Positions 1 through 9,857 of a stretch of 64,000 bases of DNA are shown in pieces. This DNA comes from a virus. The stretch is from IMG/VR virus record IMGVR_UViG_3300048999_000192, positions 1 to 64,000 of that record; one strand, given 5' to 3'. The notes under the pieces are model-generated. The model did not search any database. It saw nothing but the letters and a program-made list of their open reading frames with translations, and was not told where the DNA came from. Position 1 is the stretch's first letter. The number at the start of each line of letters is the position of its first letter. Position numbers and translations under genes: made by a program.

Positions 1-126
1 GTCCGTACTTGCCCCAGCTAAGCTCCCGGAACCGGAGCGACCTCCGCGAAGGTGCAAGTACGGACGGTCCACGCTCCGGGTAACCCCCCGGAAACCCCAA
101 AGCCGTCCCGTCTCAAATGCACCTTG

Positions 127-200
127 TCTGGATAGCTGGATTCGAACCAGCAATCCCCTGCTCCCGAAGCAGGTGCCCTGCCAAATTAGGCCATATCCAG
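127..200 (-). tRNA. tRNA-Pro (CGG)
   Basis: Minus strand cloverleaf: acceptor CTGGATA/TATCCAG, anticodon arm CCTGC-TTCGGGA-GCAGG, T arm GCTGG-TTCGAAT-CCAGC; CCA not encoded. Confidence 0.93.
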
Positions 201-271
201 TTGTGAGGACGAGCTGTTCCACTCGGGGTGCACAACCCTCGTGGTCAAGCCAGGCGATATCAGCTCCCGGC

Positions 272-341
272 CACGCACTGCGGGACTCGAACCCACACCT
301 CCGGCAACGCCGGTGTTCTGCCGTAGAACTTAGCAACGCGC
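272..341 (-). ncRNA. tRNA-like RNA with collapsed anticodon loop
   Basis: D arm GTTC-TACGGCA-GAAC and T arm GTGGG-TTCGAGT-CCCGC, but anticodon arm is CCGGC-GTT-GCCGG (3-nt loop) and the acceptor stem is imperfect. Confidence 0.65.
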
Positions 342-350
342 TCATCCTCG

Positions 351-424
351 TCGTCCCAGGAGGAGTTGAACCTCCGACCTCCGCTTTATCAGAGCGGCGC
401 TCTCACCAACTGAGCTACAGGACG
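351..424 (-). tRNA. tRNA-Ile (GAT)
   Basis: CGTCCTG-TAGCTCAGTTGGTGAGAGC-G-CCGCT-CTGATAA-AGCGG...GGAGG-TTCAACT-CCTCC-TGGGACG-A. Confidence 0.93.
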
Positions 425-460
425 TTAGATGCTGACCGGTCACACCCGGCATCTCTCTCC

Positions 461-523
461 GGCCATGGGGTGCGAATCCCTGGGTCCATTCGAGGCTCTT
501 AACGAATTTGAGCTACAGCATCC
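461..523 (-). pseudogene. degenerate tRNA-like remnant
   Basis: D-arm-like TAGCTCAAATTCGTTAAGAGC and T-arm-like GGGATTCGCACCCC; no anticodon stem. Confidence 0.35.
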
Positions 524-614
524 ACCCGAGAGGACCATCGCGTCCCGTTGGTTCGCGGCCGACAGCGCGGGGTCCGTCTCGGAAGATTTTATTTTGTTGT
601 CAAGTCTAAAGGAT

Positions 615-731
615 CACCCGGGCAAGGAATCGAACCTGCTCCTCCAGTACCAACCGGCGGGCACCTTCGCGACGGTGGGTCCGCCGGTTCTGCGCAGTCG
701 GTCTGGCGATGCGTCCATACACCACCGGGGT
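615..731 (-). ncRNA. tRNA-like RNA with a long structured insertion in the anticodon arm
   Basis: Acceptor CCCGG/CCGGG, TGGTGTATGGACGCATC D arm, T arm GCAGG-TTCGATT-CCTTGC; CCAG/CTGG stem encloses about 55 nt including an AACCGGCGG/CCGCCGGTT helix. Confidence 0.7.
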
Positions 732-736
732 CCTCG

Positions 737-832
737 CCTCCAGCCGGGAATCGAACCCGGACCCGCCCGCGCGCCGCCGTTGGGTACGGCGTGGGAGGAC
801 TCGAACCTCCCGGTACGTGGCCTATCTGGAGT
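737..832 (-). ncRNA. tRNA-like RNA with two T-loop arms
   Basis: Closing stem CTCCAG/CTGGAG encloses GGGAGG-TTCGAGT-CCTCCC, GCCGT-ACCCA-ACGGC and CCGGG-TTCGATT-CCCGG. Confidence 0.65.
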
Positions 833-833
833 A

Positions 834-851
834 GGGGTACGCGCGTACCCC
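834..851. repeat. perfect 18-bp palindrome GGGGTACGCGCGTACCCC
   Basis: Self reverse-complementary; read directly from sequence. Confidence 0.9.
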
Positions 852-916
852 ACAGAATCACCGTTCGTCTCCGCCCTCTGCAGCGGGTGAGGAGCTCATC
901 CCGGATCTTCCTGCCG

Positions 917-989
917 TGGCACCGGGTGGGATCGAACCACCGGCCTCTCCCTTTTCAGGGGAGCGCTCTTCCTACTGAGCTACAGGGCC
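917..989 (-). tRNA. tRNA-Phe (GAA)
   Basis: GGCCCTG-TAGCTCAGTAGGAAGAGC-G-CTCCC-CTGAAAA-GGGAG...GGTGG-TTCGATC-CCACC; one acceptor mismatch. Confidence 0.93.
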
Positions 990-1099
990 ATCACGCGGGG
1001 CAAAGGACGCCTAGGATTCGCCCCGCGCTATTCCCCGCGTGTCTCCCAGGTCATCCGCCCTAAGGGCAGAGAGAGCCAGGCTCACATCTCGGGGACCAC

Positions 1100-1245
1100 T
1101 AGGTGGGAGGGTGGGCAGCCGGGTGAAGGTTCCAGCGCACCGCCCTGGGGGCTTCCTCCTGGTCAAGGCCTTCACACCTAGACCAGGCATACGTTCCCCC
1201 ACCACGAGATACCGGCGGCTGACGGCCGCTGGTCTCGGGCCCACT
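1100..1245 (-). ncRNA. candidate pseudoknotted structured RNA
   Basis: GTGGGC/GCCCAC closing stem, two long hairpins; hairpin loop GTGAAGG is complementary to downstream CCTTCAC. Confidence 0.5.
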
Positions 1246-1247
1246 CG

Positions 1248-1361
1248 CCGACACAGCAAGGCTCGAACTCGCTCCTCCGGCTGCGCGAACAACCGGTGTG
1301 CTGCCGTGAGTGGCTCCCATTCGCAAAAATCCCCGGCCACTCGCTGTTACACCATGCGTCG
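1248..1361 (-). ncRNA. tRNA-like RNA with a hairpin inserted in the D loop and an extended anticodon stem
   Basis: CGACGCA/TGTGTCG acceptor, GTGT/GCAC D stem with GAGTGGC/GCCACTC insert, CCGGTTG-TTCGCG-CAGCCGG arm, T arm GCGAG-TTCGAGC-CTTGC. Confidence 0.75.
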
Positions 1362-1417
1362 TTGGCGAGGCGACAGTTGCCGCCTCGCAATATGTGGATC
1401 ACGCTCTTGAGTTGTAA

Positions 1418-1540
1418 AGCCCTCCCCGGCGCGACCAGGGCTATCCGCTGTGGCATGACGTCTCCGGAGCCAGAGACCGATGGGTTGACCGGCGAACGTG
1501 CACCGTTGGCCCATCGCTGGGGCCATACCCCCGGAGGGGC
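1418..1540 (-). ncRNA. candidate multibranch structured RNA
   Basis: Nested helices GCCCCTCCGG/CCGGGGAGGGC, GTATGGC/GTCATGC, CGATGGG/CCCATCG, GTCTCTGG/CCGGAGAC. Confidence 0.45.
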
Positions 1541-1562
1541 AGAGGGTGTCCCAGGTCCTACG

Positions 1563-1633
1563 CAGGATCACCGGGGGTCGAACCCGGGCCAACAGCTTGA
1601 GGGGCTGCCGAGCTACCACTACTCCATGATCCC
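1563..1633 (-). tRNA. tRNA with CTC anticodon (Glu), atypical
   Basis: GGGATCA/TGATCCT acceptor, GCAGC-CCCTCAA-GCTGT anticodon arm (C at position 33), CCGGG-TTCGACC-CCCGG T arm. Confidence 0.8.
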
Positions 1634-1690
1634 TGGAGCCGGGCGGGCGGAGGATCTCGCCTCCGGAGATTCCCTAACCCGGCAAGCACG

Positions 1691-1720
1691 ACGCTACCAC
1701 AACTCCAGGGATCCTTGGTA
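1691..1720 (-). promoter_or_regulatory. probable promoter of the RNA cluster carrying the phage palindromic motif
   Basis: CCAAGGATCCCTGG motif followed by TGG-TAGCGT (-10-like) just upstream of the first tRNA. Confidence 0.5.
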
Positions 1721-1729
1721 GGGGGTTCT

Positions 1730-1804
1730 TCAGATGATCCCGAAAAGTCGCAGAAGCACCAGGATAACGACGATCACCAGGATGATCCACAGGATGCTGT
1801 ACAT
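1730..1804 (-). CDS. 24-aa single-TM peptide (MYSILWIILVIVVILVLLRLFGII)
   Basis: Not in ORF track; GGAG RBS, ATG to TGA, fully hydrophobic. Confidence 0.7.
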   Translation of the reverse strand: MYSILWIILVIVVILVLLRLFGII

Positions 1805-1820
1805 GCTCCAGGCCTACCCG

Positions 1821-2141
1821 TTAGGGCCCGCAGCATTCCCAGCCGCCCTCCTCGTCGGAGCGGATCATGTCCACGCCGCCGACGATCAGGTCCCCGCAGC
1901 GGGTGCACTCGCTGTCGTAGCTCGCGACGATCCACTTCGGCCGGTGGGTGCTGCGCAGGTGCTCCCGGGGGTCACGCTGCCCGGGGTGGCGCTGCCACTC
2001 GGCGCGGCTGTCGGGGTGGCCGCCGGTGGCGAAGGGGCTCGCCGGGCCCTCAGGGTGCGCGTACGGGGTCTTCCGCCCCAGACACTCCCCGCACTGCCCC
2101 GGCAGCATCTCGTGGACGCAGCGGGCTTCTGAGTCGCTCAT
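1821..2141 (-). CDS. Cys-rich hypothetical protein
   Basis: CxH..CxxC and CxxC motifs; ATGA overlap with upstream gene. Confidence 0.65.
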   Translation of the reverse strand: MSDSEARCVHEMLPGQCGECLGRKTPYAHPEGPASPFATGGHPDSRAEWQRHPGQRDPREHLRSTHRPKWIVASYDSECTRCGDLIVGGVDMIRSDEEGGWECCGP

Positions 2142-2293
2142 ATGACACCGATCCCATAGTCGATGGTCGTGATGAGGGTCATGAAGAACAACAGCGCGAG
2201 GAGGACGGGGCTCGCAGACGGCCGCCTGGCGGCTGCCCTGGCCGAGAACAGGAGCCCGGCCAGGGCGAGAGCGGCCACCAGGAGCAGGCTCAC
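2138..2293 (-). CDS. small two-TM membrane protein
   Basis: Not in ORF track; GTG start overlapping upstream stop, two hydrophobic segments. Confidence 0.55.
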   Translation of the reverse strand: MSLLLVAALALAGLLFSARAAARRPSASPVLLALLFFMTLITTIDYGIGVI

Positions 2294-3051
2294 TCGGCGT
2301 CGATACCCGCGTCGCGGAGCTGGCGCCGCAGGCGGCCGATGGTATTGCGGCCGTCGGCCAGGGCCTGCTCCAGGCCATCCTTCTCCGCCGTCAGCCGCCG
2401 GTTGGCGTTGCGTGCCTCGGTCAGCCCGTGATCCCGGCGCTCCAGCTCGGCCCGCAGGGCGGTGGCCTGCCCGAGGTGCTCGTTGTCCTCCTCGATCACC
2501 TGCCGGACGTAGACGATCGCGTCCAGCAGCTCCTCGTACAGGTCACGCAGGCTGTTGCGGCCGTTGAACGGCTGCAGGAAGGACCCGTACCGCTGGTACC
2601 CGACGCTCTTGCGGTTCAGCATGTCCACGACGACCAGGTCATGCATGCTGGGCCGGTCGTTCGGTACCGGCAGCGGCTGGTCGCCCTCACGCGGCTGCTC
2701 GGGCTCGATCAGCTTGCCGGTGTCCCAGTCGCGCAGGCGGCGGTCGACCAGGTCCGAGAAGCGCTCCTCGACCACGTCCCAGCGCGGCAGGCCGGGGCAC
2801 AGGTAGATGTCCTCGGCTGAGCCGCCCTCGATCAGCCAGCGGTGCCAGCCGTGCTTGGCGTCACGCTCGCAGATCATCTCCGGGTACTGCTCCCGGTAGC
2901 GCTCAGGCGGCGAGCTGAGCACGATCTTGGTGTATCCGGGGCAGTGCGCCCGGCCGTGCCCGAAGGGGCGATCGAAGAAGTGTCCCTCGTGGGTCTCCTC
3001 CTCACTCCACTTCGGGCACGGCTCCTCGCCGATCTCTTCGTTGCTGCTCAC
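2290..3051 (-). CDS. protein with all-alpha NTP pyrophosphohydrolase (MazG-like) segment and coiled-coil tail
   Basis: RKSVGYQRYG...RNSLRDLYEELLDAIVY acidic helix motif. Confidence 0.55.
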   Translation of the reverse strand: MSSNEEIGEEPCPKWSEEETHEGHFFDRPFGHGRAHCPGYTKIVLSSPPERYREQYPEMICERDAKHGWHRWLIEGGSAEDIYLCPGLPRWDVVEERFSDLVDRRLRDWDTGKLIEPEQPREGDQPLPVPNDRPSMHDLVVVDMLNRKSVGYQRYGSFLQPFNGRNSLRDLYEELLDAIVYVRQVIEEDNEHLGQATALRAELERRDHGLTEARNANRRLTAEKDGLEQALADGRNTIGRLRRQLRDAGIDAE

Positions 3052-3237
3052 GCTGGATCTCCTGTGGTCGTTTCGGGCGGGGAGTGACGACGGACGCGTT
3101 GCCGTCGAGGATGCGGGCGGACAGGCGGGCCTGCCGGGCGCCTTCGAGGTCGCCTCTCGCCTTGCGCTGCCGGGCGATCTGGTACCACATATCCCTTATC
3201 GCCCGGCGGCCGTGGGGGTGGTCCGGGGCCCAGGACA

Positions 3238-3615
3238 TCAGTGCTTGGCGGCTTTCTTGGAGCCCTTCTTGCGCTCCTCCTCGACCTGGACGGCGATCAT
3301 GCGCAGCGCGTCGGCGTTCGGGTCGGTGATGCCGCCGTGCTCGCTGATCGCCAGCGCCCCTCCGAGGATGGCGTCCTCCAGCAGCCTGATCCGCTCGGCG
3401 TCATTGCGCGCCTGGGCGTTGCACTCGCGCACCTCGTGCTCGGCCTCCTCCAGCCGACCGGCGAGCTGGGAGTGCATGTCCTTCACGGCCGGGTAGCCGG
3501 TCGGGTAGTCGATCCCGTACTCGACCAGGAACTCATTGATCCGGTCGAGCTCCTCCAGCGCCTCCTGAATGCCCGTCAGGGCCTGCGCTGGGGTGAAGTT
3601 CACGCTGATCTTCAC
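3238..3615 (-). CDS. coiled-coil hypothetical protein
   Basis: Phage-like codon usage, translational coupling. Confidence 0.7.
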   Translation of the reverse strand: MKISVNFTPAQALTGIQEALEELDRINEFLVEYGIDYPTGYPAVKDMHSQLAGRLEEAEHEVRECNAQARNDAERIRLLEDAILGGALAISEHGGITDPNADALRMIAVQVEEERKKGSKKAAKH

Positions 3616-3956
3616 GTGCCGCTCCCGTTGGGGTTCGGGGCACCGGGGAGGATGCCCTTGTTGACGTCGTCGACCAGCTTGGCCTTCTCGGCCCGCATGC
3701 CGGTCAGGGTCATCTGGATCTGCTTGTCGATCTCCTCCGGCCGGGGCAGCGGGTGGCCGAACATGATCGGGGCCATCATCCGCTCGTCCAGCGCCAGGCC
3801 ACGGATGGTCAGCAGGGCGACGAGGGAGACCGCCATCCCCTGCGGGGTCGGCAGGAGCTGCATCCAGCAGTCGTACTGGACGTCCTCGCCGAGGGAGTTG
3901 CGGGCGACGGCGTCCGCGACGACGGCGCGGGCACCGTCAGTGATCGTCGGCTGCAT
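3612..3956 (-). CDS. hypothetical protein
   Basis: AAGGA RBS, coupled to neighbours. Confidence 0.7.
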   Translation of the reverse strand: MQPTITDGARAVVADAVARNSLGEDVQYDCWMQLLPTPQGMAVSLVALLTIRGLALDERMMAPIMFGHPLPRPEEIDKQIQMTLTGMRAEKAKLVDDVNKGILPGAPNPNGSGT

Positions 3957-4191
3957 CGGATTCCTTCTTCCAGGATTGAATGGGCTGCGGGACCGCGAGG
4001 ATCTGGGCGTCCTCCTCGGTCGCCTCGCCCTTGATGACCCGGGCGAACCGGGAATAGGCGTCCATGACCGGAATCCACTTGTGGCACTGGTCGGACGTCT
4101 TGTTGGCGGCGGCCTCGGTGAGGACCGTCATGCCCTCGATCAGGGCCTGGTCGATCGCGTCGGCCTCGTAGCCGCCAGGGAGGGTTTTCAC
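3937..4191 (-). CDS. hypothetical protein
   Basis: GTGA overlap with helicase stop. Confidence 0.65.
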   Translation of the reverse strand: MKTLPGGYEADAIDQALIEGMTVLTEAAANKTSDQCHKWIPVMDAYSRFARVIKGEATEEDAQILAVPQPIQSWKKESDAADDH

Positions 4192-5762
4192 TTGGACCTC
4201 TTCCGGGAGATGGAGAACATCAGGCGGCGGTCGGCGGCCGTGAGGAAGGCCTCCTCGTCGGCCACGTCGTCACCTAGGAGTGCGTCCTGGACAGCGTTGC
4301 GGGCCAGCATGTTGTCGACGATCTGGCGCTCGACGGTGCCGGTCAGGACGAAGGTCATGCAGTGCACGCAGGCGGCCTCGGAGTCGATCCGGTGGATCCG
4401 GTTCATCCGCTGGATCCGCTTGGAGTGCGTCAGGCCACTCTCGTACTCCACCACGTAGGTGGCCTCGGGGACGTTGATCCCGCGCGCCCCGGCGTCGGAG
4501 GTGAGCAGCACGGCTGGCTCGTCGGACTCGCGGAACGCCTGGATCGTCTTGTGCTGTTCGACGGCGGACAGCCCGCCGTGATTGAGGAAGAACGGCAGGC
4601 CCGCCTGCTCCAGATCCTGGCGCAGCGCGTGCAGCACCGACTGGCCGAAGTAGGTGAAGACCATCGCCTTGGCCCCCTGGCCCAGCACGAGGGGCTTGAG
4701 GTACTCCAGGAGCGCCTCGGACTTGGCGCTGGGCACCTGGCCCAGGTACTGGGCTCCCAGGCCCGCCACGAGCTCCTGGGCGAGCTCTGAGCGTCCCCAG
4801 AGCAGGGAGGCCGGGTGACCGGCGATCTGGCGCAGGATCATCCACAGGCCGGGCACGTCCTGCAGGTCCCCCTCGTCGTCCCAGGCGAGCCCTTCCACGA
4901 GCTGGTAGAGCTTCTTCTCCTCCGGCCGCATGTCGACGTTGCGGACCTCTTCGACCTGCTGGGGGAACTCGGCGATCACGTCGGGGTCGGTCTTGCGCTT
5001 GCGGATGATCATCGGGGCGCACAGCTCGGCGAACTCCGGGATGTAGCTCCGGTTCCAGATCGGCGCGCGGGCGACCACCCGGTTGCCCTTCTTGATCTCC
5101 CGCCAGGCCTTGATCGCGTTCTTCTCGAACTCCCCGACCGTCGGCATCAGCTTGGGGGCGATCAGCCGGAACTGGTTGAACGCGGTCTCGATGTCGCGCT
5201 CGACGGGGGTGGCCGTCAGCCCGTACACACGCAGCCCGGGGTTCTTCTTCCGGAGCTGCTTGAGCAGGTAGGCGTGGTTCTTGTAGAGCTGGGAGGAGCG
5301 GTTGCCCAGCTTGGTGCACTCGTCGTAGATCACCATCACCCGGCGGCCCGCCAGCCACTCCAGGAAGGGTCCCTCGGCCAGGGTCTTGCCCCGGCCGGAG
5401 GGGCCGGTCACCGTGACGGCGCAGTCGTTGCGCGCGGTCTCGTAGGTGGTGATGACCACGTCGGCCCCGGCGGCGTCCAGCTTCTTGGCCCGCGTCGGCC
5501 CGTGGTAGACGTACGGCGTCAGGGTGGTGTACTTCGCGAAGTCCTCGGCCCACTCGTGGATCTTGTTCTTCTCGGCCACCAGCAGGACCAGGTCGACGTC
5601 CTCGAACTCGAACGAGAGCCCGCCGATCCCCATGGCCGCGTGCGACTTGCCCATGCCGGTGTCCCAGATGAAGGCGGCGCGCTCCAGCAGGTAGCCGTAG
5701 GCGATGCCGTCGACCTGGAATTCATAGACCCGGTCGGACCGGTAGACGGGCTTTTCAGGCAC
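4188..5762 (-). CDS. SNF2-family (SF2) helicase
   Basis: DTGMGKS (motif I), IYDEC (II), LTATP (III), GARGIN (V), QRMNRIHRI (VI). Confidence 0.92.
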   Translation of the reverse strand: MPEKPVYRSDRVYEFQVDGIAYGYLLERAAFIWDTGMGKSHAAMGIGGLSFEFEDVDLVLLVAEKNKIHEWAEDFAKYTTLTPYVYHGPTRAKKLDAAGADVVITTYETARNDCAVTVTGPSGRGKTLAEGPFLEWLAGRRVMVIYDECTKLGNRSSQLYKNHAYLLKQLRKKNPGLRVYGLTATPVERDIETAFNQFRLIAPKLMPTVGEFEKNAIKAWREIKKGNRVVARAPIWNRSYIPEFAELCAPMIIRKRKTDPDVIAEFPQQVEEVRNVDMRPEEKKLYQLVEGLAWDDEGDLQDVPGLWMILRQIAGHPASLLWGRSELAQELVAGLGAQYLGQVPSAKSEALLEYLKPLVLGQGAKAMVFTYFGQSVLHALRQDLEQAGLPFFLNHGGLSAVEQHKTIQAFRESDEPAVLLTSDAGARGINVPEATYVVEYESGLTHSKRIQRMNRIHRIDSEAACVHCMTFVLTGTVERQIVDNMLARNAVQDALLGDDVADEEAFLTAADRRLMFSISRKRSK

Positions 5763-6039
5763 GCTCGATCACGACCACGATGCGGTAAACGCCGCACTCG
5801 CCCATCTGCTCCCGGGCGATCAGGGTGTCCCCGGCGATCACCATCAGCGGCGGTTCCATCGGCATGTCGTACGGGCGGATGAGTATCGCGGGCTCCGAGC
5901 CCTCCACCATTATCTTGCCGAAGACGTCGTGGGTGCGCGGCGGGAAGGCAATGGCGGAGGCGTAATGGTGATCCTTCAGCCAGTCCACGCAGTCCTGCAT
6001 CTCGGCCGTCGGGTGTACCTCGAAACGCTCTTCGCTCAT
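5755..6039 (-). CDS. hypothetical protein
   Basis: Coupled ORF, typical codon usage. Confidence 0.65.
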   Translation of the reverse strand: MSEERFEVHPTAEMQDCVDWLKDHHYASAIAFPPRTHDVFGKIMVEGSEPAILIRPYDMPMEPPLMVIAGDTLIAREQMGECGVYRIVVVIERA

Positions 6040-9103: not shown

Positions 9104-9354
9104 GCGCTCTTCTTCCTCTCGCGGTTCCGGCGGTACTCAAGACCCGCCCGGCGCAACTTCAGGATCACCCGGTCGAGCGAGTGGTGGTCGGACGCGGTGC
9201 TGGGGGAGAAGACCTGCTCACCCTCCGGCGACCGCCAGGAAAAGTGCCCGCCCCGGGTGTGGGTGATCGTCCACCCCTGGTCGATGGCGGCCCGTGCGAT
9301 CGGCCGCCACTCCTTCTTCATCGCCTTGGGGATCCGGCGGTTGCCGTTGCTCAC
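9100..9354 (-). CDS. HicA-like toxin domain protein
   Basis: QGWTITHTRGGHFSWRSPEG...STASD...LRRAG matches the HicA-fold pattern with conserved GxH. Confidence 0.7.
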   Translation of the reverse strand: MSNGNRRIPKAMKKEWRPIARAAIDQGWTITHTRGGHFSWRSPEGEQVFSPSTASDHHSLDRVILKLRRAGLEYRRNRERKKSA

Positions 9355-9857
9355 GAGGGATCCTCGCCCATCCGGCGGATGCCGACCAGGGCGTTCTCGA
9401 TCATGCGCAGGACGGCCTGAGACTCGTCCTGCGGGCCCAGGTACTTCAAGTCCAGCCCCGCGTACGTGTTGGGCGGCGGGGAGGCCACACGGTCGCCCAG
9501 ATCCTTCAGGGCCCGGCGGGCGTACTGCACCTGGGCCTCGGCACGTTGCAGGCGGCTCTTGACGTACTCAGCCGTCTGGCTGGCGGCGGTGGCCGTACCG
9601 ATCGTGCCACCGCCGCCCAGCACCTCAAAAAGCTCGTCTGCCAGGGTTAGGTCATCGTCGAGCCACTCGGCCCGTACGGTCGCCTGCTCGATCAGGTAGC
9701 AGGTGCCGGTGTAGAGCTCATGCTGGCGGGTCTCCGAAAGCGAGGAGAACCCCTTGAGCTCGTAGCGCAGGTAGCGGTCGACATCTGATGGCGTTATCGC
9801 TTTGCGCCGGATCAAGAGCCGGGCAATGCGTTTCGGATCGGTATCGGGGGATGCCAT
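9351..9857 (-). CDS. hypothetical protein, probably leaderless
   Basis: ATG lies 6 nt after a TAGAGT -10 box. Confidence 0.7.
   Translation of the reverse strand: MASPDTDPKRIARLLIRRKAITPSDVDRYLRYELKGFSSLSETRQHELYTGTCYLIEQATVRAEWLDDDLTLADELFEVLGGGGTIGTATAASQTAEYVKSRLQRAEAQVQYARRALKDLGDRVASPPPNTYAGLDLKYLGPQDESQAVLRMIENALVGIRRMGEDPS

Follow-up and report, generated by a model that had tools for sequence, protein, structure and literature searches.

Within the window, the 64,000-nt stretch of DNA analyzed here and the first 64 kb of the 155,098-bp virus record IMGVR_UViG_3300048999_000192 (67% G+C, probably of soil origin), a transfer RNA (tRNA) array lies on the minus strand (Table 1). We consider it reasonably probable that this array is a phage tRNA operon in which non-decoding, tRNA-derived RNAs (elements Z, X, U, and probably W/V) are encoded as well, together with at least one unrelated structured RNA, S. 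The core observation, true tRNAs standing in one row with tRNA-shaped RNAs that have an abnormal arm, is real and goes far beyond chance, and the view that these elements are tRNA-derived RNAs unable to decode normally is supported by their anatomy and by comparison with related phages.

A first-pass annotation, made from the letters alone, had described four canonical tRNAs on the minus strand, and all four are recovered both by ARAGORN and by Rfam (57–69 bits). A search of both strands of the 155-kb genome for a strict T-arm motif (a 5-bp stem with a closing G-C pair and the loop TTCRANN) gave 10 sites, nine of them on the minus strand; eight lie within window positions 1–1720, all on the minus strand. 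Orphan T arms, which lie outside any tRNA, occur at 1272, 810, 760, and 296, with an imperfect one near 636. The sequence GGTTCRANNCC is present 11 times in the 64-kb window against 1.13 expected, an approximately tenfold excess that none of 100 shuffles reached, and eight of these 11 copies fall inside the array. Across about 250 kb of related loci, no orphan T arm lies anywhere but within a tRNA array. Every orphan T arm has an acceptor-like stem at a sensible distance and an abnormal arm; the T-arm search and the folds thus bear out the proposal of at least four tRNA-shaped RNAs that have T and acceptor arms but an abnormal other arm (Z, X, U, and W/V). Most mimics and tRNAs share the same trailer, a discriminator base followed by C.

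The 7-bp acceptor on a 5-bp T stem with a UUCRA loop, as in a tRNA, is found in these elements. Acceptor pairing is 7/7 in Z and X, whose T arms are perfect; it is 6/7 in W and also in V, where the partner strand lies inside W, and U is imperfect here and 7/7 in the related phage L005. A standard anticodon arm (5-bp stem, 7-nt loop, U33, purine 37) is absent from Z, X, and U. ARAGORN at its default setting calls none of Z, X, U, or W/V, and the Rfam tRNA model gives no match for X, U, W, or V up to E = 1. No Rfam family other than tRNA explains any element (E ≤ 1), and Z alone reaches the threshold; matches to Plastid-ycf2, microRNA, and Thr-leader families were rejected as antisense tRNA matches or noise. 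A canonical parent was sought for each orphan among the tRNAs of the clade and none was found, the likeness ending at the T arm. Since the best local scores of orphans against canonical tRNAs of the clade are 13–28, against a median of 42 between canonical tRNAs, the mimics are not recent copies of the latter.

Relatives were identified through a 310-aa protein encoded just downstream of the array (metagenome relatives of 90–34% identity), and syntenic contigs were compared. The array was recovered from five or six related metagenomic phages. L004 and L005 (90%) have this row with a tRNA-Asp and two further tRNA-like elements added; in L009 (65%), L006 (62%, 20 canonical tRNAs), L011 (62%), and L008 (51%), tRNAs and orphan T-arm elements are combined differently. 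More distant relatives have no array at this place. A 1616-nt contig from another soil run represents a further array variant.

Element Z is an anticodon-less mimic with a full cloverleaf: the acceptor has 7 bp, the D stem has 4 bp and a loop with GG, the variable loop has 4 nt, and the T arm (GUGGG/UUCGAGU/CCCGC) is perfect. The anticodon arm (CCGGC-GUU-GCCGG) forms a closed 5-bp hairpin with a 3-nt loop. Z marginally clears the Rfam tRNA threshold (30.3 against 29 bits), yet it is not called by ARAGORN. Unconstrained minimum free energy (MFE) folding gives cloverleaf-like shapes for both Z and X. When the Z sequences of four phages were aligned by structure, by hand, pairing was seen in 75 of 76 stem cells, and 12 of 19 positions in the acceptor, D, and T stems were occupied by two to four different pair types. 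All four anticodon arms are shortened (13, 12, 13, and 11 nt, against the canonical 17), with stem and loop of 5 + 3 (bp + nt) in Z itself and 4 + 4, 5 + 3, and 3 + 5 in the homologues. Its location is the same in L006 and L009, where tRNA-Gly(UCC) precedes it and tRNA-Val follows. Because it is kept in phages rich in canonical tRNAs (20 in L006, eight in the L009 fragment), Z is no by-product of tRNA loss in the present lineage.

Element X has a 7-bp acceptor, a D stem with a 7-bp hairpin inserted in its loop, an anticodon arm whose 6-nt loop can close further into a 4-nt tetraloop, and the T arm GCGAG/UUCGAGC/CUUGC. Acceptor pair 7-66, which is A-U in this phage, is G-C in L004/L005. Identity between X and its counterpart in L004 is 97%, compared to 76–90% for the flanks and 89–92% for tRNA-Glu and tRNA-Pro. 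In a soil contig exactly positions 1249–1361, that is X, are swapped for 98 other letters, as tRNA-Glu is for 68, and X therefore behaves as a gene-like cassette and a discrete module.

In element U the extended arm is a helix with a conserved unpaired CUGCGCAG bulge and an apical loop that contains UCGCGA, both constant in the comparison with L004/L005. Overall identity to these relatives is 55%, and 91.8% of cells are paired. Eight pairs have changed on both sides, compared to 3.0 in shuffles (0/500) and at most two when partners are slid; the inner 9-bp helix alone shows four double and two single changes and no breaks. X and U may be paralogues. This is suggestive, resting on a comparison of letters in which only UGGUGUA and a 3′ part of the form GGAGGAGC...GUUCGA...CUUGC are common to both.

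The structured RNA S, of about 140–190 nt with a variable insert in helix P3, aligns with the sequence that follows tRNA-Glu or tRNA-Trp in L004, L011, and L006. Its fold was derived with RNAalifold from four phages, and a covariance model built from these four (R1) finds S in L008 (59.9 bits, E = 2e-16), which was absent from the training set. In the five-sequence alignment 97.2% of cells are paired and 12 pairs show double changes; the alignment has a covariation score of 0.386, whereas shuffles give 0.152 (0/500) and slid partners no more than 0.111. S has no Rfam match. The comparison indicates that S represents a new family of structured RNAs, linked to the beginning of the arrays. Compensatory changes are thus present in homologs of Z, U, X, and S, and the earlier argument that paired insertions speak against simple decay is strengthened, as helices, including the inserted ones, are kept by such changes in relatives. 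Anatomy, enrichment, and structure conserved through sequence change are the observations on which our interpretation is built.

The composite W/V contains two perfect T arms. W (864–783) has a Trp-like CUCCAGA loop on a 4-bp stem and a 6/7 acceptor with a mismatch, and where the D arm belongs it has a 7-bp hairpin with a 4-nt loop, without GG elbow bases. In an alternative fold of W/V, one CUCCAG/CUGGAG stem is formed around both T arms. ARAGORN reports W as tRNA-Trp(cca) at 783–864 at a relaxed threshold only. It could be argued from this call, and from the C-U-CCA-G-A loop on its 4-bp stem, that W is a divergent tRNA-Trp, the more so as a canonical tRNA-Trp is present in relatives and missing here, and that X, with its 6-nt or alternatively 8-nt loop, is a frameshifting or non-standard reader. 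We regard such unconventional decoding as very improbable: Z and U have no loop able to present an anticodon, the D-arm hairpin of W lacks the GG elbow and its acceptor is mismatched, W, X, and U obtain no Rfam tRNA score, no gene needing a shifted frame was seen, and the genome has no Pth2-type gene.

Several observations weigh against an operon with selected, non-decoding members, and some of them favor its main rival, partial decay. Under that explanation, which we consider unlikely, a large ancestral array (approximately 20 or more tRNA genes) was mostly lost, and the orphans persist by inertia and GC-richness. Syntenic relatives have up to 20 canonical tRNAs against four or five here; the tRNA-Asp of L004/L005 is missing here, and a soil relative lacks Z and tRNA-Pro together. 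U here has three unpaired T-stem cells and breaks in the acceptor, leaving both stems weakened. L004 is without the T-loop consensus at the position of Z, where a cloverleaf-like fold with a 3-nt-loop hairpin persists. Relaxed motif searches give further imperfect T arms in relatives, and two regions of the array, Y and leader A, resemble half tRNAs. Y has a good D arm (GUAGCUC...GAGC) and a T-like stem of only 3 bp with the loop AUUCGCA; it is degenerate, looks like decay, and is identical in L004/L005, so that selection is unreadable. The 5′ part of leader A resembles the acceptor and D-arm half of tRNA-Glu. Its consensus fold is weak (16 pairs, two of them compensatory, several broken; MFE z = +0.09), and leader A was rejected as a convincing mimic.

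Other adverse points concern the comparison itself and the genome. W/V is 100% identical in L004/L005 and gives no covariation signal, leaving selection unreadable, and the same holds for the hairpin Q, identical in these, its only close relatives. Elements are gained and lost between near-identical phages, so each is dispensable; canonical tRNAs turn over alike. The comparative sets comprise two to five lineages, with structures derived from the same sequences. Spacer MFE z-scores (dinucleotide shuffles) range from +0.9 to -1.8, and only 515–604 reaches -2.6; the z-score is a weak test here, the true tRNAs scoring no better than the spacers. The genome has no CCA-adding enzyme, RtcB, or RNA ligase, Pth (PF01195) and Pth2 (PF01981) have no match in it at E ≤ 0.1, and no partner protein is evident. 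A soil metatranscriptome contains one identical 156-nt contig (420–575), extending from the Q/Y spacer to the 5′ end of tRNA-Ile. As DNA may have been carried over into the library, this contig is no evidence of transcription; the same RNA-library run otherwise gave unrelated tRNA look-alikes.

Against partial decay stands that decay would break pairs, whereas the changes seen here are compensatory. In four phages the anticodon arm of Z has been closed again cleanly, and Z keeps a fixed position in phages whose tRNA sets are full. Conservation of X exceeds that of the neighboring tRNAs and spacers, and the orphans have no recognizable canonical parent. Canonical tRNAs are gained and lost as often, so that turnover does not single out the orphans. 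A mixed row fits best, in which Z, U, and X are selected mimics, S is a new RNA, and Y and leader A are remnants.

What the mimics preserve is precisely the acceptor and T-arm portion on which RNase P depends, the remainder being lost, and this would also be expected if they served as punctuation only, that is, as cis-acting RNase P/RNase Z sites that release or stabilize the true tRNAs and the segments S, R, and Q and have no function as free RNAs. Non-tRNA segments are indeed flanked in this manner, S lying between tRNA-Glu and X, and R between X and tRNA-Phe. The punctuation of mitochondrial transcripts by tRNAs and the mascRNA-mediated formation of the MALAT1 3′ end are precedents for it. 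We nevertheless judge a role confined to punctuation to be decidedly unlikely. Cleavage would need neither the insert helices of U, whose bulge and loop are kept, nor the D-loop hairpin of X, yet both are conserved, and Z lies between two true tRNAs, where an extra cleavage site is needless.

For an operon with non-decoding members, the following course of events can be envisaged. Transcription of the row would start at one promoter upstream of it and at one or two within it. Each acceptor/T-arm module, tRNA or mimic alike, would be cut by host RNase P and the 3′-end machinery, and this would free tRNAs, mimics, and intervening RNAs as discrete, stable species. The mimics would retain the half that is gripped by enzymes and sensors (acceptor stem, T arm, and the GG elbow of the D loop), with the decoding end sealed or replaced by helices. 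Most likely they would then act on tRNA-binding factors as decoys or sponges, or the tRNA frame would serve as a processing and stability scaffold for the inserted helices. Anticodon-less tRNA-like domains are handled by tRNA enzymes. We favor a decoy, sponge, or scaffold role because the mimics keep the acceptor, T arm, and elbow and drop the decoding end. Transcription, processing, stability, and the decoy or scaffold role are what we infer from the anatomy, the cutting step from established tRNA biology.

The statement that nearly every spacer folds into nested helices is not supported by folding energy; comparison between phages supports S, the Q hairpin, and the leader hairpin, and weakly R. 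A soil-contig variant of Q differs at three positions, including one double change of G-C to A-U and one change of G-C to G-U, and all pairs are kept. The leader hairpin shows two double changes with respect to L004/L005 (G-C to U-A and G-C to A-U), again with pairing kept. In R, compared to L004/L005 (two lineages only), three double changes and approximately nine one-sided changes with pairing kept stand beside two broken pairs, and R is possibly a structured RNA, judging from this alignment. A promoter consensus scan gave one site where 0.3 were expected; in L004/L005 the CATATT hexamer of this candidate is identical and the first hexamer is TTGAAA. The array has a G+C content of 64%, and directly before the Q hairpin there is an AT-rich island, UUGACAACAAAAUAAAAUC, at 588–609 (with a UAAAAU stretch). 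This island may be a second internal promoter; the simple promoter consensus scan does not call it.

Table 1. Features of the tRNA array and homologues of element Z (positions in the window unless a related phage is named).
Feature	Position	Strand	Description and basis
tRNA array	126-1725	minus	approximately 1.6 kb
3′ trailer of array	1-125	minus	runs over the record-end overlap into a hairpin-rich stretch before the next open reading frame
tRNA-Pro (CGG)	126-200	minus	last array gene; ARAGORN; Rfam 63.9 bits
Z	272-341	minus	anticodon-less mimic; Rfam tRNA 30.3 bits, gathering 29
tRNA-Ile (GAU)	350-424	minus	ARAGORN; Rfam 69.4 bits
Y	450-523	minus	degenerate tRNA-like remnant; read from sequence, no ARAGORN or Rfam match
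Q	520-587	minus	long irregular hairpin; MFE z -2.58, 2/200 shuffles; only notable spacer
U	610-734	minus	tRNA-like frame with extended arm; anticodon arm replaced by a helix of approximately 60 nt
W/V	737-864	minus	two perfect T arms (810-794, 760-744); T-arm motif, folds
tRNA-Phe (GAA)	916-989	minus	ARAGORN; Rfam 64.6 bits
R	990-1248	minus	259-nt spacer with several long hairpins; MFE z -1.4, -1.8
X	1249-1361	minus	tRNA-like with D-loop hairpin; acceptor 7/7 pairs, 113 nt upstream of 3′ strand
Leader hairpin	1363-1386	minus	8 bp; between promoter candidate and X
Promoter candidate	1389-1418	minus	sigma-70-like, TTTACA-18 nt-CATATT; consensus match only
S	1420-1561	minus	four-helix junction RNA; starts at the base after the tRNA-Glu 3′ end with invariant GUAGGACCUG
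tRNA-Glu (CUC)	1562-1633	minus	ARAGORN; Rfam tRNA 57.2 bits
Leader A	1634-1725	minus	directly upstream of tRNA-Glu; conserved in L004, L008, L011
Z homologue	L005 5314-5382		
Z homologue	L009 2886-2952		Rfam tRNA 47.7 bits; mascRNA 32.1 bits
Z homologue	L006 8205-8272		40.3 bits

Window positions 11–136 are identical to record positions 154973–155098, that is, copied at the record end; the record is circularly permuted and the array spans the junction. Although listed as linear in IMG/VR, the record is in effect circular or permuted. The first 10 bases of the window mismatch the junction (compared with record 154963–155098), and bases 1–12 are the reverse complement of 54–65, which looks like a fold-back artefact at the contig end. 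Upstream of the array are small open reading frames that end near 1731. Downstream, past the junction, three open reading frames (97, 310, and 120 aa) are followed by a separate fifth canonical tRNA, tRNA-Met (CAU; record 153165–153239, L003 13166–13240, minus strand). A strong GC hairpin after tRNA-Met looks like a terminator for the whole unit. Seven open reading frames neighboring the array have no Pfam family. The helicase of the phage is at most approximately 27% identical to that of any cultured phage, with actinophages as best matches, and the host is probably a high-GC actinobacterium.

Searches for further copies of the array were carried out in several collections. Megablast and blastn of the array against public phage records matched only the canonical tRNA-Phe and tRNA-Ile. 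IMG/VR searches with single proteins gave no matches, and profile searches of IMG/VR, metagenome, and genome collections returned distant array-less relatives or noise only. A DNA-pattern scan of IMG/VR for S and Z, with a 14-base pattern, gave 119 chance matches, none of which was confirmed by R1, and longer patterns for S and Z found nothing there. In L004/L005, gene callers place no gene on the array strand. Further non-canonical tRNA-like elements are seen in the relatives (L005 5230–5304; L008 7009–7081 and 7916–7988; L006 4627–4720; L009 142–231), namely an Ile-like one with a CAGAUAA loop that lacks U33, one with a 9-bp arm, one with an encoded ACCA end, and two with long inserts. L005 also carries an HNH/NUMOD4 homing-endonuclease gene (9294–9797) that is missing at that place in the near-identical L004, which points to mosaic turnover around the array.

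Comparable elements are present in cultured actinophages. A T-arm screen of annotated arrays found two orphans in JustBecause, six in GodonK (L039), and one in Pumpernickel (L040). An unannotated 95-nt element of JustBecause (L038 12502–12596, at about 123623–123717 of the phage record) combines a 7-bp acceptor with a first arm that holds an insert, a second arm that is small and closed, and a T arm; it is kept in Kela, Frankenweenie, and Satis with five double changes (L041 ~1506–1603; L042 ~1447–1545). Homology of X to this element was considered and rejected, as the covariance model R2 misses X and the likeness is architectural only. A second unannotated element of JustBecause (L038 11604–11772, at about 122725–122893 of the phage record, 168 nt) has a normal acceptor, D arm, and T arm and an insert of approximately 95 nt. 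With low confidence, we propose that large actinobacteriophages, JustBecause and Satis included, commonly encode, within their tRNA operons, a hidden class of mimics that lack an anticodon or bear inserts, and companions such as S, which would be matured by host tRNA enzymes and would act as anti-defense decoys for host factors that bind the acceptor and elbow half of a tRNA (for example, toxins modifying or cutting its acceptor end) or as natural tRNA-scaffold carriers of functional hairpins.

Phage tRNA arrays are now read as devices for codon supply or tRNA replacement. In the array described here the non-decoding mimics and companion RNAs take up approximately 670 nt, against approximately 300 nt of true tRNA. 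If a sizeable share of the members of such arrays were of this kind and under selection, annotation pipelines would be missing a class of phage RNA genes, and the biology of tRNA arrays would extend to decoys, scaffolds, or regulators. As comparable unannotated elements occur in cultured Streptomyces phages, these ideas can be tested at the bench.

The first-pass annotation had not recognized the row as a described system. The searched literature contains no description of conserved anticodon-less members in phage tRNA arrays; precedents of the kind nevertheless exist. One of them is YrlA, which has D and T arms and no anticodon, carries tRNA-type modifications, and is a substrate of several tRNA-recognizing enzymes (PMC4201824). 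YrlA occurs in some actinophages, and a phage pairing of Ro60 and Y RNA is known (PMC4201824). Like the mimics here, YrlA (RF02553) is an anticodon-less tRNA mimic. It is, however, defined by a Ro60 gene within about 4 kb on the same strand and by a GNCGAA Ro-binding stem formed from its 5′ and 3′ ends, whereas the mimics described here end at the acceptor stem. The ends of U lie at the acceptor stem as well, and its apical loop, GUCGCGAA, does not fit GNCGAA by eye. A search of the whole 155-kb genome for the TROVE/Ro60 domain (PF05731) gave no match at E ≤ 0.01, while control genomes did match, and RF02553 has no match up to E = 1 in window positions 1–6000; a YrlA/Ro60 reading was rejected on these grounds. 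Distant relatives encode TROVE/Ro60 (L012 9327–10979 and a contig of P0005), and in L012 a YrlA-like match of 41.7 bits (gathering 69) lies just upstream of TROVE at 9169–9232, overlapping a tRNA-Lys call. A transfer-messenger RNA was found neither in the window nor in the genome (ARAGORN, Rfam).

The closest precedents are the small RNAs RNAC and RNAD (species 1 and 2) of phage T4, which are encoded in its tRNA region, with roles unknown (PMC3014915), and have been validated as accumulating RNAs (PMC9697503). Likened by description only, they resemble the elements here as non-tRNA RNAs located within a phage tRNA cluster. In T4 two such RNAs stand beside eight tRNAs, whereas here at least four mimics and S outnumber the four tRNAs. 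If our interpretation is correct, it bears on the 50-year-old question of the role of RNAC and RNAD.

Cloverleafs with a shrunken anticodon arm are known from mascRNA/MEN-beta and from the tRNA-microRNA transcripts of murine gammaherpesvirus 68, where they are processing modules for RNase P and RNase Z and, in the herpesvirus, carry hairpins. The Z family resembles mascRNA (RF01684), with its L009 homologue scoring 32.1 bits, below the gathering score of 42.5; the mascRNA-menRNA model has no match in the window. The systems differ in that mascRNA and the herpesvirus tRNA-like genes (PMC6409571) belong to eukaryotes and an animal virus, and in that the extra helices of U and X lie inside the tRNA frame rather than being attached to its outside.

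Structured non-coding RNAs are also known from GOLLD and ROOL, whose function is unknown and which often lie beside tRNA genes in phages and prophages (PMC5737381). They are approximately 580–800 nt long and have Rfam models of their own, neither of which matches up to E = 1, whereas S is a four-helix RNA of much smaller size. The ordinary tRNA arrays of large actinophages share the organization and the canonical tRNAs of the array described here (PMC6409571). Those arrays are catalogued as decoding tRNAs, in contrast to the conserved anticodon-less members found in this one. The row is unexplained by existing families and adds to the known theme of tRNA-like and tRNA-associated phage RNAs.

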